DNA from: a virus | Taxonomy: Duplodnaviria > Caudoviricetes | Direction: 5' to 3' (one strand) | DNA: 64,000 bases | IMG/VR virus record: IMGVR_UViG_3300003375_000001 | Coordinates: 32,001 to 96,000 of that record | Notes under the pieces: model-generated | Databases searched by the model: none | What the model was told of the DNA's origin: nothing | Seen by the model: only the letters and a program-made list of their open reading frames with translations | Translations under genes and position numbers: made by a program | In this document: piece after piece, positions 28,151-56,907 of the stretch | Layout: every line of letters begins with the position of its first letter | How positions within the stretch are numbered: position 1 is the first letter of the stretch

Positions 28151-28840
28151 ATGATCTATCAACCTCTGTCTTCGTCTACCCGTAGCACTGAGCTGCCTCT
28201 GGCGGCTGGCGCTTCCAGCACTATCGTCGCTGACGGTCAATCGCTGGTCTACACTCTGGTCAACGGTATCGCTGGCGTGCAACCTTCTGCTGGTGCCGCT
28301 GGCGAACAATTCGCTGGTTTCGTTAACGCTCAAACTTCGGCTGCTGCTTTCCTGCAACAAACAGCTATCAAGGTTGAAGACGTTACTCTGGGTGCTTCGG
28401 GTACTTACTCGTTGGCCTTCGTCCCTGTCTCCGGCACGCTGTTTGTGTACGACGTGACTGCTGGTGCTCCTGTCGTTGTGACTACAGGCTACACCATCGA
28501 TGCATACGGTAACGTGACTGCTACTGGTTCTGCCAACCATGAAGTGATCTTCACTTATGTGTACGCTCTGACCGTTACGCAAGCTCGCGCTCTGCAAGGT
28601 GACATTCAGCCAGGCAACTACGCTGGTCTGTCGCTGGGTCAAGTGGGTGTTAGCCAATCGGGCACCATCTATCATGACCAGATCGACACTTCGAAAAACT
28701 GGCGCGCTGCTACCGCTGTGAAGCTGGGTGCTGGCGGCAAGCTGCAGGACCAAACAGGCTCCGGCGTGCAGATCAATGCCAAAATTCGCGCCGTACCTAC
28801 TGGCGATTATCCGTACCTCGGCTTGGACTTCTCCCTGTAA
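28151..28840 (+). CDS. Probable capsid decoration/cement protein
   Basis: 229 aa, beta-rich, Ala/Gly/Thr-rich; immediately upstream of the capsid gene; strong codon bias. Confidence 0.5.
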   Translation: MIYQPLSSSTRSTELPLAAGASSTIVADGQSLVYTLVNGIAGVQPSAGAAGEQFAGFVNAQTSAAAFLQQTAIKVEDVTLGASGTYSLAFVPVSGTLFVYDVTAGAPVVVTTGYTIDAYGNVTATGSANHEVIFTYVYALTVTQARALQGDIQPGNYAGLSLGQVGVSQSGTIYHDQIDTSKNWRAATAVKLGAGGKLQDQTGSGVQINAKIRAVPTGDYPYLGLDFSL

Positions 28841-28847
28841 TCTAGCT

Positions 28848-28881
28848 TGGTGGGGTAGATAACTACAAAACTACCCCGCCA
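28848..28881 (+). other. Hairpin upstream of the major capsid gene
   Basis: TGGTGGGGTAG-12 nt-CTACCCCGCCA (one G.U); no U-tract. Confidence 0.55.
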
Positions 28882-28906
28882 GTAACACACCCTCAAGGAA
28901 ACACTC

Positions 28907-29983
28907 ATGACTTCTGCAATTCGCGCTCAACGTCACGCTACCGTGGCGACTGACTTCAAATTCCAAGGTTCCAACACTCGTGTCGTTGGTTCGAATGGCG
29001 AAATCAACGCCAACGATAAGAAAGACCTGCTGAAATCGTCCATGCGTCTGATGGAAGCAGCGTCTAACGGTCTGATCGTTACGGAAGACGACCAACGCGC
29101 TCGTGACGAACGCGCCGCTGTGAACAAGGAACTGTTGACTGCTGCTTTTGGCAACGACATGTCTCACCGTGTTCTTGGTGAACGCATCGCCGAAGAAATC
29201 TATATGACTTCAAACCGTAAGGGTTTCAGCCGTCGCTTCCTGAACCGTATCGAACTGAAGCAAGGTGACATCCCTCGTTTCGCAGTTCGTAAGAAGAACG
29301 TTACTGCCTCTTTCATCACAGGCCCATCGCGTCTTGAAACCCAAGTCGTGACTGACAAATGGCTGACCCCTCCTGAATTCCAACTGGCAACACGCGTGTA
29401 CGTGCCCCAGAACGAAATCAACCAAAGCAACAGCGACGTGCTGGAAGAAAAGTACGTCGAAGCACTGGAAGCCATCATGGTGTCGGAAGACCGCCTGTGG
29501 TACCAACTGGCACAAAACACTATCGGTATCGACAACAACAAGTCGGTCATCGCTGGTACCTTGTCGCCTTACTCCCTGATGAGCGTGCGCCAGCAAGTTG
29601 CTAAGTGGGGTCTGAAGGTTCCTTACTGTCTGATGGCTTCTGACCTGTTTATCGACATCGTTGGTGACAGCGACTTCATCCAAGCTATTGAACCTGTCGC
29701 TCGTCACGAACTGGTGATGACTGGTGAACTCGCTGTGCTGTACGGGATGACTCTGATCTCGGAAGCTTATCGTCACCCAGAACACAAGGTTCTGAACCAA
29801 GGTGAATTCGCTTGCGTGTCGGATCCTCTGCAACACGGTGCTTACTCTGATCGTGGTGGTGTTGACAGTGCTCCTATCAACCCAACTACTGAAAAGATCA
29901 TGGGTCGTGGTTGGTTGCTGTCGGAATCGTTGTCGATGACTGTGGCGAATTCCCGTTCAGTTGCACTTGCTGTTAGACAGTGA
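28907..29983 (+). CDS. Major capsid protein (HK97-fold, inferred)
   Basis: 358 aa; strongest codon bias in the window; AAGGA RBS; capsid-like segments RRFLNRIELKQGDIPRF, VPQNEINQSNSDVLEEKYVEALEAIMVSEDRLW, LYGMTLISEAY; lies between scaffold-like and neck/tail genes. Confidence 0.75.
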   Translation: MTSAIRAQRHATVATDFKFQGSNTRVVGSNGEINANDKKDLLKSSMRLMEAASNGLIVTEDDQRARDERAAVNKELLTAAFGNDMSHRVLGERIAEEIYMTSNRKGFSRRFLNRIELKQGDIPRFAVRKKNVTASFITGPSRLETQVVTDKWLTPPEFQLATRVYVPQNEINQSNSDVLEEKYVEALEAIMVSEDRLWYQLAQNTIGIDNNKSVIAGTLSPYSLMSVRQQVAKWGLKVPYCLMASDLFIDIVGDSDFIQAIEPVARHELVMTGELAVLYGMTLISEAYRHPEHKVLNQGEFACVSDPLQHGAYSDRGGVDSAPINPTTEKIMGRGWLLSESLSMTVANSRSVALAVRQ

Positions 29984-30000
29984 GTACATAAACTATACGG

Positions 30001-30190
30001 ACTAGGGCCAAGTGCCCTAGTGTAAGACGATACCTTGCGAATGTTTGAAGGTGGCTGAAACTAGCTTAGCCGCTGGTGCGAAAGAAATGGTGCAGACTAC
30101 GTGGTTGTGGTATCTGCTCCTGACGGGGTTCATACGATAGTGAATCCAACTCGCAAAGTTCTAATGAACGTCTTACACTAGGGCACTAGC
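30001..30190 (+). ncRNA. Candidate structured non-coding RNA (~180-190 nt); strand assumed from context
   Basis: Perfect 19-bp closing stem 30011-30029/30169-30187, inner stem TTGCGA/TCGCAA and three internal hairpins; no credible ORF in the 243-nt gap. Confidence 0.6.
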
Positions 30191-30226
30191 TCTAATTTAT
30201 TGAACCAACCCCACAAAGGAATCGAC

Positions 30227-30700
30227 ATGGCAAAGTATAATCGCGCTCTTGACACTCTTGTCATGGCCGCTGCCCTGCATCGTCAAGGCAAATCTAATGA
30301 AGCTGCGAAGCTTTTTGTTCAAGCTGCCTCGGACAAGTCTATGGCAGAAGCATCGAAGCTGGTGAATCTGTATAATCAGAAAGCTCTGGCCTCTAACATA
30401 GCAACCCGCGTCGCAAAGGCTACTACAGCTAAGCCTGCTACAAAGCCAGCTAAGCCTACAAAGGCTGCCGCTTGGCCTTGGTCTGAGACGGCTGACGCTG
30501 CTCCTTCTGACGTGCTTGACGTTCAAAACGAAGACTTCGGTATCGAGCCTGAAGAAAACGAGTTGATGACTCGCGTTGTTCAGGAAGCTGACGCCATCGA
30601 CGGTGATGAAGACGAGCATGAAGACGAAGGTGAAGAACAGGAAGCTGTTGCAGCTGCCCGCTTCACTCGCGCTCTTGCTAATCTGTCCCGTCAAGGTTGA
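30227..30700 (+). CDS. Acidic, Ala-rich hypothetical virion protein (possible internal head protein)
   Basis: ATG 30227 behind AAGGA (track start 30200 is TTG); capsid-like codon bias; D/E-rich C-terminus. Confidence 0.6.
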   Translation: MAKYNRALDTLVMAAALHRQGKSNEAAKLFVQAASDKSMAEASKLVNLYNQKALASNIATRVAKATTAKPATKPAKPTKAAAWPWSETADAAPSDVLDVQNEDFGIEPEENELMTRVVQEADAIDGDEDEHEDEGEEQEAVAAARFTRALANLSRQG

Positions 30701-30729
30701 TCTTCCAGGTCTAACAACTCGCCAAAGCT

Positions 30730-30770
30730 AAAGGGCTAGGTGCCAACTCCGGCCCTAGCCCTTTTCTTTT
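30730..30770 (+). terminator. Rho-independent terminator ending the head operon
   Basis: AAAGGGCTAGG...CCTAGCCCTTT followed by TCTTTT. Confidence 0.85.
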
Positions 30771-30788
30771 GGTCAATCAGGAACTACC

Positions 30789-31229
30789 ATGTCACACATT
30801 CAAGAGATTGCTAAACGCTTGCAAGTTACCTCTGCACACCCACCTAGTGTTATTACTGAAGTTAGAGGGCGAAAGCTTAAACTTTGGGAATCAGGCGTAT
30901 ATCTTATAACAGGCTCTATAAAATATCTTAACGACGACGACCTTCACGATTTTTTAGAAGACAGTAACCCGAGCCCTGAATTAGAAAAACTGTATAAGAC
31001 CGCTGACGGTGCTATAAGCGGCTACTCTAGTAACCATAGAGATAGTGGAGGCTTTGTATATTCTGGTGCAGTAAAGCCTTATAAAAACATAAATGACCTC
31101 TACGACTTCTTAGGCTTGTTACCTAAACTCCCTAGTTTTGCTGGTTTCACCTTTAAAGCCTACAGCGATGTACTGTTTACCTTCTCCAAGGGCAACAACA
31201 TTGTTGTCATAGCCTTAGTTGACGACTAA
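30789..31229 (+). CDS. Hypothetical protein (N-terminus MSHIQEIAKRL)
   Basis: 146 aa; AGGA RBS; N-terminal motif shared with the internal start at 32642. Confidence 0.6.
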   Translation: MSHIQEIAKRLQVTSAHPPSVITEVRGRKLKLWESGVYLITGSIKYLNDDDLHDFLEDSNPSPELEKLYKTADGAISGYSSNHRDSGGFVYSGAVKPYKNINDLYDFLGLLPKLPSFAGFTFKAYSDVLFTFSKGNNIVVIALVDD

Positions 31230-55643: not shown

Positions 55644-56861
55644 TTAAGCTGACTTCAAGTAAGATACAAGTTCCTTGTACCCTTGTCTACCCTTAAATAC
55701 TTTAAGTGGTGATTTAAGTTTTTGACACCATACTATCAAAACGTAGTCTCCCCAGTTACGTTCTTCTGAAGCTAGTTGGGCGTACTTGAACTTGTTAAGC
55801 ACGCCTTTTTGCTTAACCCACCAGGTGCTCTTTACCTCTACTAGGTGCTTTACACCAGAAGACGACTTTGCACACAGATCAGGAAAGTAGTATCGCTTCT
55901 GTTCATTATTCCAATATGGAATGTATATCTTAAGTCTTTCCGCAGAATCAACGGTAAAGCCCTTTGACTCTAGCCACGCGGCTACAAAAGGCTCATATCC
56001 TTGTAATGACAGCACTCGCCCTGATACTGTTGTGAAGAGTTTTCTTGCCCTATACGTTTTAGCTGACTTTGACTTAGCGTCCTCTGACATTATGGAGAAG
56101 GGTACGCCATACTTCTCCATGCATGTAGCCATTACCTTAGCTCGTACTTTTTTGTTCTTCATAGCTGAGGTCGCCCCAAACCTTTTCATGTTTGTCGCAA
56201 CAGTCTTTCGCCTAATGTCCTTTGATTGCTGTGCGTGTTCTACTCCGTATAATGCTAGCATTTTTGCTTTTGACTTTTCCTTAACTGCTAACGATTGTTG
56301 AGGGCTTTTAACACCATGGTTCTTCTTGCAAGTCTTCTGCATGGCAGCTAATATAGTATCGCCTCTTACTTCCCAGTTTCGCTTTTGGGACTCCGAACTT
56401 TTTCGCTTGACATGATCAAGCTGTATAGGGTTATTAACTCCATACTTCTTCATCATGTCTCGTTTACGACTGGACTGATACTCTTCCGAGCCTTGCCATT
56501 CTTTTGAACAAGCCATAGAACAAAATCTGTTTTTAGGCCTAGTGAATAAATAGCCTCCACTCAAAGGTATAGTACGACCTGTCTTACACCACTGACAGTT
56601 GTATTCCCCAATCGCCATAAGGTATACTTTAAGCCATCTGTCTCTCATAGGTCCAAACCGTTTGCTGTTAACGTACTCTGACCTATCCGGAGAGTTGGGT
56701 CCCGCAACAATGGCTAACTTAATGAACTCGCTCTCACTGTTTGATATGTTCAGGTCGGACGGGCAGTTCTGTCTGACCACGTCACGCAGCTTTCTAGCGC
56801 TGGTGTACTCACCAAAATTTACCACTGCCTTGACGGCGTGCTTGAAGGTGTAAGATTTCAT
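55644..56861 (-). CDS. Free-standing homing-endonuclease-like protein (KYGV repeats plus PD-(D/E)xK nuclease)
   Basis: Only credible minus-strand gene; Cys cluster CQWC..CSMAC; five ~19-aa (K/R)(Y/H/F)G(V/A) repeats; C-terminal RYYFPDL..LVEVKS; start 56861 preferred to 56888. Confidence 0.8.
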   Translation of the reverse strand: MKSYTFKHAVKAVVNFGEYTSARKLRDVVRQNCPSDLNISNSESEFIKLAIVAGPNSPDRSEYVNSKRFGPMRDRWLKVYLMAIGEYNCQWCKTGRTIPLSGGYLFTRPKNRFCSMACSKEWQGSEEYQSSRKRDMMKKYGVNNPIQLDHVKRKSSESQKRNWEVRGDTILAAMQKTCKKNHGVKSPQQSLAVKEKSKAKMLALYGVEHAQQSKDIRRKTVATNMKRFGATSAMKNKKVRAKVMATCMEKYGVPFSIMSEDAKSKSAKTYRARKLFTTVSGRVLSLQGYEPFVAAWLESKGFTVDSAERLKIYIPYWNNEQKRYYFPDLCAKSSSGVKHLVEVKSTWWVKQKGVLNKFKYAQLASEERNWGDYVLIVWCQKLKSPLKVFKGRQGYKELVSYLKSA

Positions 56862-56907
56862 GTCTGATCCTAGTAAAACGTCTGACATAAAAATGTCTAA
56901 GTTGACT
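55645..56907 (-). mobile_element. Endonuclease insertion flanked by a 10-bp near-direct repeat
   Basis: TAAGCTGACT (55645-54) and TAAGTTGACT (56898-907), both encoding K-L-T in + strand reading frames. Confidence 0.5.

Follow-up and report, generated by a model that had tools for sequence, protein, structure and literature searches.

Immediately behind the major capsid protein gene of an uncultured jumbo phage lies a short, highly structured element closed by a perfect inverted repeat, and the question raised by this locus is what such an element could be. It was found in a 64,000-nt stretch of DNA (hereafter the window), which belongs to a 238.5-kb genome with direct terminal repeats, and an earlier note made from the letters alone had taken it for an undescribed structured RNA. 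The capsid gene matches those of phiRSL1, BcepSaruman, and Motura and thereby relates the window phage to them. The 243-nt gap described behind this gene is real, with the capsid stop codon ending at 29983 and the next gene most likely starting at ATG 30227. This next gene encodes an acidic 157-aa protein that has no match in Pfam or PHROG, and homologues of which stand 3′ of the corresponding position in L020, L049, and L056, the loci of three related uncultured jumbo phages that carry the same arms at the same place. While a mechanical ORF list puts the start of the acidic protein at TTG 30200, the ATG at 30227, behind AAGGAA, is the likelier start and agrees with the MAKYN start of the three homologues. 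The coordinates of all the features discussed below are collected in Table 1.

Table 1. Features of the post-capsid region of the window
Feature	Position	Strand	Basis or remark
Major capsid protein gene, 358 aa	28907..29983	+	phrog_2522 major head protein, E 5.8e-83
Cassette remnant, block common to the intact L049 cassette	29988..30186	+	Two alignment blocks
Local hairpin H, ACTAGGGC/GCCCTAGT, loop CAAGT	30001..30021	+	Fold -13.8 kcal/mol
Left arm of the bracketing inverted repeat	30011..30029	+	19/19 complementary; 14-bp core invariant
Truncated nuclease 5′ leader, with TTGCGA (30035-40) and hairpin 1 (30051-73)	30030..30074	+	Aligns with 5′ half of the L049/L056/L020 leader
Deletion junction, CGCT microhomology	30071..30074	+	CGCT at L049 99-102 and 1246-1249
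Pseudogene fragment, last 35 codons and TAG of the DUF7487/TnsA-like nuclease gene	30074..30181	+	P0275 translation
Right arm of the bracketing inverted repeat, contains nuclease stop codon (30179-81)	30169..30187	+	19/19
Weak hairpin H′ (TAGGGC-ACTA-GCTCTA), then ATTTATTG	30179..30202	+	Terminator scan; terminator-like
Downstream gene, acidic 157-aa protein, unknown family	30227..30700	+	ATG after AAGGAA ribosome-binding site

The inverted repeat itself is beyond doubt. Positions 30011-30029 are the exact reverse complement of 30169-30187 (19/19), and these 19-bp arms enclose a 139-nt interior, which makes the element 177 nt long. At three mismatches or fewer, the arm sequence occurs at only two places in the window, as against 0.02 expected, and the element is single-copy across the 238.5-kb genome. 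The minimum free energy (MFE) of 29995-30195 on the + strand is -86.3 kcal/mol (z -7.64), and this fold reproduces the inner stem TTGCGA/TCGCAA, the three hairpins, and the junction that had been described by eye, while adding an outer 6-bp extension in which 30003-08 pairs with 30189-94. However, the - strand of the same region folds at z -6.9, and the 139-nt interior by itself reaches only z -2.5, somewhat more structured than shuffles; the fold signal is therefore mainly that of the inverted repeat, although a residual RNA role of the interior is conceivable. The competing hairpin proposed at the 5′ end is real as well: ACTAGGGC (30001-08) and GCCCTAGT (30014-21) form 8 bp worth -13.8 kcal/mol, and since the 3′ strand of this hairpin H belongs to the left arm, H competes with the long stem. 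Hairpin H′ at the other end also competes with the long stem and folds, but no better than shuffles, and the same place in L020, L049, and L056 holds GGGCA-loop-TGCCC followed by a T-rich run. Both ends of the element contain ACTAGGGC (at 30001 and 30177). Further on, just 3′ of the acidic-protein gene (30722-30772), we observed an imperfect 19-nt inverted repeat (84%) that is terminator-like, as its 3′ arm ends in a T-rich stretch (CCTAGCCCTTTTCTTTTGG), and that has a CTAGCCC/GGGCTAG motif in its stem in common with the hairpins at the ends of the element.

Comparison with the three related loci reveals what the element is made of, since there the same arms bracket a gene. The order within an intact cassette is left arm, structured 5′ leader, nuclease gene (377-390 aa), and right arm, the last overlapping the stop codon. 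In L020, the closest relative that we found (its capsid protein, P0001, is 93% identical), the arms GGTGCCCTAGTGTAAACCA and TGGTTTACACTAGGGCACC surround a 377-aa ORF (L020 4234-5367) that matches PF24308 (DUF7487, E 1.3e-28), PF08722 (TnsA-like, E 2.6e-7), and phrog_3339 ("homing endonuclease," E 5.3e-15), its PHROG matches being to families annotated as homing endonuclease or endonuclease. L049, a 1651-nt contig from another sample, encodes a 390-aa homologue that is 41% identical to the L020 protein. Three residues, D301, E315, and K317, are invariant across six homologues in a D...ExK pattern, and the nuclease is, as judged from its sequence, a predicted homing endonuclease of the DUF7487/TnsA-like, PD-(D/E)XK type. 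In L056, the nuclease gene is frameshifted in an A-run, with 70-80% identity to L049 across the break. The frame changes at about 1170-1190, inside the run CAAAAAAGAAAA, where two ORFs of 247 and 139 aa are called; a genuine mutation, slippage, or a mistake in the assembly could each account for this. The nuclease ORFs of all three loci stop at the same TAG within the right arm.

The window holds the two ends of such a cassette and nothing of its middle. Positions 29988-30074 correspond to L049 16-102 (86/87 identical, 99%) and positions 30075-30186 to L049 1250-1361 (104/112 identical, 93%), and the two homology blocks overlap by the 4-nt CGCT. From these collinear blocks and the 4-nt CGCT direct repeats, it follows that about 1147 bp were lost from an L049-type cassette. 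The lost part comprises the ~355 codons with which the nuclease gene starts, the catalytic region (D301, E315, and K317) included, as well as the 3′ half of its leader. Only the two arms, one half of the leader, and 35 codons of the C terminus are left. The translation of the latter (P0275) is identical at 33 of 35 positions to the C terminus of the L049 protein (P0273; tblastn E 7.2e-18) and is clearly homologous to the nuclease C termini of L056 and L020 too, while upstream of the fragment there are in-frame stops and no start codon. As the eight nucleotide differences yield only two amino acid changes, most of the divergence is older than the loss of the gene. The comparison with L020 gives the same picture, with homology that spans the left arm and hairpin 1, ends at 30074, and resumes at the right arm; the L049 alignment also accounts for a weak match (E 0.24), of little meaning by itself, that links the interior to the 3′ end of the L020 gene. 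As pseudogene remnants go, the element in the window is an ordinary one, and we consider it very probable that it represents a dead, internally deleted homing-endonuclease cassette in the post-capsid spacer of phiRSL1-like jumbo phages. The gene thus forms a decay series that runs from intact copies (L020 and L049) through a frameshifted one (L056) to the deletion in the window. The same deletion allele is present, with no variants, in a 96.8-kb Logan contig from a freshwater metagenome DNA run; this is not an independent observation, as that run is the only sequencing run matching (no RNA run does) and probably this record's own source, but it shows a consistent assembly of the deletion allele.

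This origin also accounts for each part of the fold. Hairpin 1 is a refold of the orphaned leader half, whose partner strand is deleted in the window, while hairpins 2 and 3, the TCGCAA strand (30151-56), and the right arm are former nuclease coding sequence. It is by chance that the arms, the half leader, and the 35 codons now fold together as a junction with the arms as its closing stem. The last hairpin, with its likeness to a tRNA T-arm, is nuclease coding sequence, and ARAGORN finds no tRNA or tmRNA gene. A free-standing, undescribed structured RNA gene (tRNA/Y-like, 6S-like, or a packaging RNA), as the earlier note had favored, might have been expected from the strong fold (z -7.6), the four-way junction, and the T-arm-like hairpin. 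It is hardly credible now that the 5′ part is known to be half a leader and the 3′ two-thirds to be the last 35 nuclease codons with their stop, that the junction is confined to the deletion allele, and that relatives show either a short spacer or a full gene. Nor is there an Rfam or tRNA match: the best Rfam hit has an E value of 0.57 (a 21-nt plant-virus pseudoknot model), with none at gathering score, and the four intact cassettes have no Rfam match at E values up to 0.1. The weak promoter claimed for the RNA (TTGCTG-16-TAAACT) is likewise missing from the consensus scan, which lists no + strand sigma-70-like promoter in 28800-30900. An insertion scar, named beforehand as the finding that would speak against the RNA, is what the locus contains, because the element is a nuclease-gene leader plus a coding remnant.

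How did the cassette come to this site? A profile search, made exhaustively, places the nearest nuclease homologues directly behind capsid genes (L050/51, L052, L053, and L055), and overall the nuclease gene stands directly behind the capsid gene at seven loci of related phages. Searches elsewhere were poor in matches: IMG/VR yielded no close relative of the L020 nuclease, tblastn against cultured phages gave only distant matches (25-45% identity), a PDB sequence search with the nuclease returned nothing meaningful, and a literature keyword search found no paper mentioning DUF7487. Since the nearest nuclease homologues lie behind related capsid genes, the distribution looks like one-site homing and not like transposition. 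Moreover, the identities of the cassettes disagree with those of the flanking genes, which indicates that the cassette moves independently of its flanks. The cassette blocks of the window and L049 are 93-99% identical, as opposed to 159/252 nt (63%) and 43% at the amino acid level for the next gene; conversely, the gene 3′ of the cassette is 84% identical between L049 and L020, whose nuclease proteins are only 41% identical. To judge from these sequence comparisons, this is what homing of a DUF7487 cassette to the post-capsid site looks like.

Among 16 related loci taken from IMG/VR and GenBank, a post-capsid spacer of 32-75 nt with one strong hairpin (9-13 bp stem) is usual, and about a dozen relatives with spacers of 32-75 nt lack the nuclease gene. 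Nearly all phiRSL1-like relatives (L004-L017 and L025) keep a GC-rich hairpin right behind the capsid stop. In most of them no T-run goes with it, and the hairpin suggests either a conserved 3′ stabilizer or a terminator other than a classical intrinsic one. Two more distant loci have longer spacers of 162-165 nt with several strong hairpins (L009:830-991 and L018:4006-4170, with MFEs of -82 and -53 kcal/mol, respectively), and these may be further insertion remnants. A close empty-site allele (>80% identical) was not found among the fetched loci without the nuclease gene, the alignments of which end inside the capsid gene, and we can therefore only infer the borders of the cassette, its homing site, and the origin of the arms.

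An element of this kind could also be taken for a miniature inverted-repeat transposable element (MITE), that is, a non-autonomous transposon moved via its terminal inverted repeats. The likeness is more than superficial, as the element is short (177 nt), non-coding, bounded by 19-bp terminal inverted repeats, and produced by internal deletion of a longer coding element that encodes a TnsA-like nuclease domain. Unlike MITEs, however, it is single-copy in the genome and present at one locus, with no copy at other loci in IMG/VR or JGI contigs, and there is no target-site duplication, the flanks being CA and AG and the 8-nt direct repeat ACTAGGGC overlapping the right arm. The full-length element has no transposase partner, only the nuclease, and is always found at one site, and the other DUF7487 genes are without inverted repeats. 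The exact 19-mer arm has no match in IMG/VR, and the 14-mer core has 23, which we take as chance because all are single, with no partner arm at three mismatches or fewer; the leader motif is absent from IMG/VR, and JGI/ENA metagenome contigs gave only an already known relative (L054, the same as L022). A MITE, which the earlier note had offered as one form of DNA-level remnant, is therefore a very unlikely explanation.

What sets the cassette apart from an ordinary selfish gene is the pairing between its ends. The leader can pair with the 3′ end of the gene over 15-20 bp in 7/7 post-capsid nuclease loci, with five unrelated arm sequences, and this pairing is kept in every intact cassette copy of the related phages. 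By lineage, the stem lengths are 15 bp (L052), 17 bp (L053), 19 bp (L055), and, counting G-U pairs, 15 bp (L050), and the 19 + 6 bp in the window compare with 15-20 bp in the related cassettes, all of these lengths being predictions. Three controls fall short of this. Leaders mismatched with the 3′ end of another lineage reach at most 9 Watson-Crick pairs (at most 11 with G-U), 16 distant DUF7487 loci that are not capsid-adjacent 6-10 (9-14 with G-U), and the loci of two paralogues in the same genome, which have no bracket, at longest 7 (10 with G-U). The pairing consequently characterizes the post-capsid lineage and does not extend to the nuclease family at large, which speaks for a function connected with the post-capsid site and against ends of the transposon type. 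Both paralogues are intact 414-aa DUF7487-family genes, located at 55644-56888 (- strand) and, outside the window, at G000 222514-223758; they match PF24308 with an E value of 2.2e-33, are 34-41% identical to the L049 protein, and either could in principle act in trans on the site of the remnant.

The arms have changed in concert. Within the arm family to which the window belongs (four copies), a 14-bp core is invariant and the flanks covary in L049, L056, and L020, with double compensatory changes at four stem positions. The outermost pair is A-T, C-G, or G-C (A·C in L049), and the three inner pairs alternate between GACG/CGTC and ACCA/TGGT. Arms are perfect in the window (19/19), as compared with one G-U pair and a terminal mismatch in the intact L049 copy. 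The idea that the structure is conserved in relatives thus holds for the closing stem, which covaries, and not for the interior junction, which occurs only in the deletion allele. We infer from these sequence data that the 15-20 bp pairing of leader and 3′ end is a selected feature of the post-capsid nuclease lineage. The leader of the intact nuclease genes (L049:58-196, L056:330-464, and L020:4130-4246) has a fold of its own, a conserved long stem around two hairpins, in which 12 of 39 predicted pairs show compensatory change (three sequences, + strand), and which is probably a translational control element of the nuclease gene.

A second recurrent property is that the long pairing has local competitors. 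Hairpins overlapping the left arm recur in L020, L056, and L052, and in three types of cassette (window/L049, L020/L056, and L052) the left arm shares sequence with the 3′ strand of the local post-capsid hairpin, and the right arm with the 5′ strand of a weak hairpin that precedes a T-rich run. Because the arms overlap the hairpin strands, the long pairing and the two local hairpins are mutually exclusive. Of the two exclusive folds originally described in the window, the competing hairpin is therefore part of a recurrent layout, and the interior junction shows no conservation as an RNA. The layout varies, though: in L053 and L055 the stop codon follows the right arm at a distance of 70-90 nt, and the start codon is covered by the pairing only in L055.

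The pairing may act as RNA or as DNA. Action in the + strand late transcript, our preferred reading at about an even chance on the predicted structures, is favored by stems that lengthen on the + strand when G-U pairs are tolerated (5/7 loci, which is suggestive only), by the covariation of the leader, and by inner arm pairs that covary outside the local hairpins. L052 contradicts the first of these points, as there the G-U test favors the - strand (21 vs. 15 bp). In such a transcript, the long duplex would enclose the selfish gene and serve either to insulate it structurally or as a site for RNase III-type processing, and would compete with hairpins H and H′, leaving the capsid and tail messages undisturbed. 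The pairing, a duplex of 15-25 bp around a 1.2-kb insert, might in this way separate nuclease expression from the capsid message and release the cistron downstream. We tentatively propose, with considerable doubt, that post-capsid cassettes carry a selected RNA bracket that serves to box in or excise the selfish gene in an intron-like manner, and that in the window this bracket has outlived the gene and is now a 3′ structure of the capsid message. The option of a cis-acting RNA, raised by the earlier note, hence survives in part, in that the closing stem recurs and is kept with compensatory changes, although such an RNA would belong to the mobile cassette and would not be an independent gene.

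The arms could instead matter only at the DNA level, as halves or inverted duplicates of the capsid hairpin that make up a palindromic nuclease target, in which case the pairing would be a by-product or a protein-binding feature. PD-(D/E)XK nucleases are frequently dimers acting on palindromes, and a target of this kind fits such an enzyme. It also fits that every relative without the nuclease gene has a strong hairpin just after the capsid gene, that ACTAGGGC is duplicated at both ends and the right end reads as an inverted copy of the left hairpin and part of its loop, each loop being partly complementary to the other, and that the 14-bp core is invariant though the nuclease proteins are 41% identical, as would be the case for a protein-recognized site. 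The - strand folding about equally well and the result of the G-U test in L052 point in the same direction. However, the inner 4-5 bp of the arms, which lie outside the local hairpins, covary (GACG/CGTC vs. ACCA/TGGT), the G-U pairs of the + strand (5/7 loci) would turn into A-C mismatches on the opposite strand or in a DNA cruciform, and L053 and L055 have their right arm within the ORF and not at the border of the cassette. A purely DNA-level role of the arms is a serious possibility, but one to which we give less than an even chance.

For the window, there is the further question of why the remnant has been kept. Probably it persists because it does no harm and because, on either view of the arms, it still interrupts the target site of the nuclease, which would shield the phage from the intact enzyme of co-infecting relatives. 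Protection by a remnant that interrupts the site is a standard expectation of the homing cycle (PMC2988022). Alternatively, the remnant might have been co-opted as a cis-acting RNA, its 25-bp stem serving as a 3′ stabilizer, a processing site, or an attenuator of the acidic-protein gene. The arms are perfect here (19/19) and imperfect in L049, six more outer pairs have been added, and the stem is located where all relatives keep a hairpin, with a weak hairpin and a T-rich run behind it. Against this, there is one example of the shortened form, so that covariation cannot be assessed for it, and the deletion looks recent (99% and 93% identity, with mostly synonymous differences), which leaves little time for selection. 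We regard co-option as unlikely, and retention of a harmless remnant that still interrupts the nuclease site as the probable course.

Many of these properties have counterparts in well-studied phages. Free-standing homing endonuclease genes of T4-type phages (seg and mob) go through a cycle of invasion, decay, and loss (Edgell, Gibb and Belfort 2010, PMC2988022). Like them, the cassette carries an optional nuclease gene, present or absent among relatives between essential late genes, with a phylogeny that conflicts with that of its flanks and with decay by frameshift and internal deletion. Unlike seg and mob, which are of the GIY-YIG or HNH families, its nuclease combines DUF7487 with a TnsA-like PD-(D/E)XK domain and its host is a phiRSL1-like jumbo phage; paired ends like those of the cassette are, moreover, not reported for seg and mob. 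RNA hairpins limit the translation of T4 I-TevI, I-TevII, I-TevIII, and segB and of Aeh1 mobE (PMC2988022). As in these cases, the cassette presents a conserved RNA structure on a selfish nuclease gene within long late polycistronic messages, but instead of a local hairpin over the ribosome-binding site, its pairing of 15-20 bp spans a gene of ~1.2 kb, from the leader to the region of the stop codon. Another precedent is found in the PeSL cassettes of T4-type phages, in which direct repeats of an early promoter and a stem-loop are thought to drive recombination (Arbiol, Comeau et al. 2010, PMC2839356). Stem-loop sequences flank optional genes in otherwise collinear phage genomes in both instances, although the flanks of our cassette are inverted, unlike the direct repeats of PeSLs, and lie in a late operon.

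A parallel to the end pairing comes from RNA processing. Long-range stems processed by RNase III flank 16S and 23S rRNA, and RNase III also acts at the intercistronic sites of T7. The cassette is similar in that a predicted duplex of about two helical turns joins the sequences that flank a long insert in a polycistronic RNA, which is a likeness of workings and not of membership. Decayed homing-endonuclease genes and restraining RNA hairpins are thus well described in T4-type phages (PMC2988022), and what differs from the known here is an uncharacterized nuclease family, a jumbo-phage host, and end-to-end pairing. Our literature keyword searches found no paper describing paired ends around phage homing-endonuclease genes, nor any description of the idea that a selfish gene is made harmless by such pairing.

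The locus is a warning case, for what folds at z -7.6 into a four-way junction that includes a tRNA-like arm turned out to be the refolded ends of a deleted gene, and it was the comparison of relatives that decided what structure prediction could not. It displays, at one position in the genomes of uncultured jumbo phages, every stage that a selfish nuclease gene passes through, namely the empty site, the intact gene, the frameshifted gene, and the deletion, and it gives the uncharacterized DUF7487 family a concrete homing context. The bracket is the one unusual point and makes the remnant a modestly interesting variant. Because the end pairing is specific to the post-capsid site and is kept by compensatory change, the sequences suggest that selfish genes in a phage's most transcribed operon may evolve a way to stay harmless.
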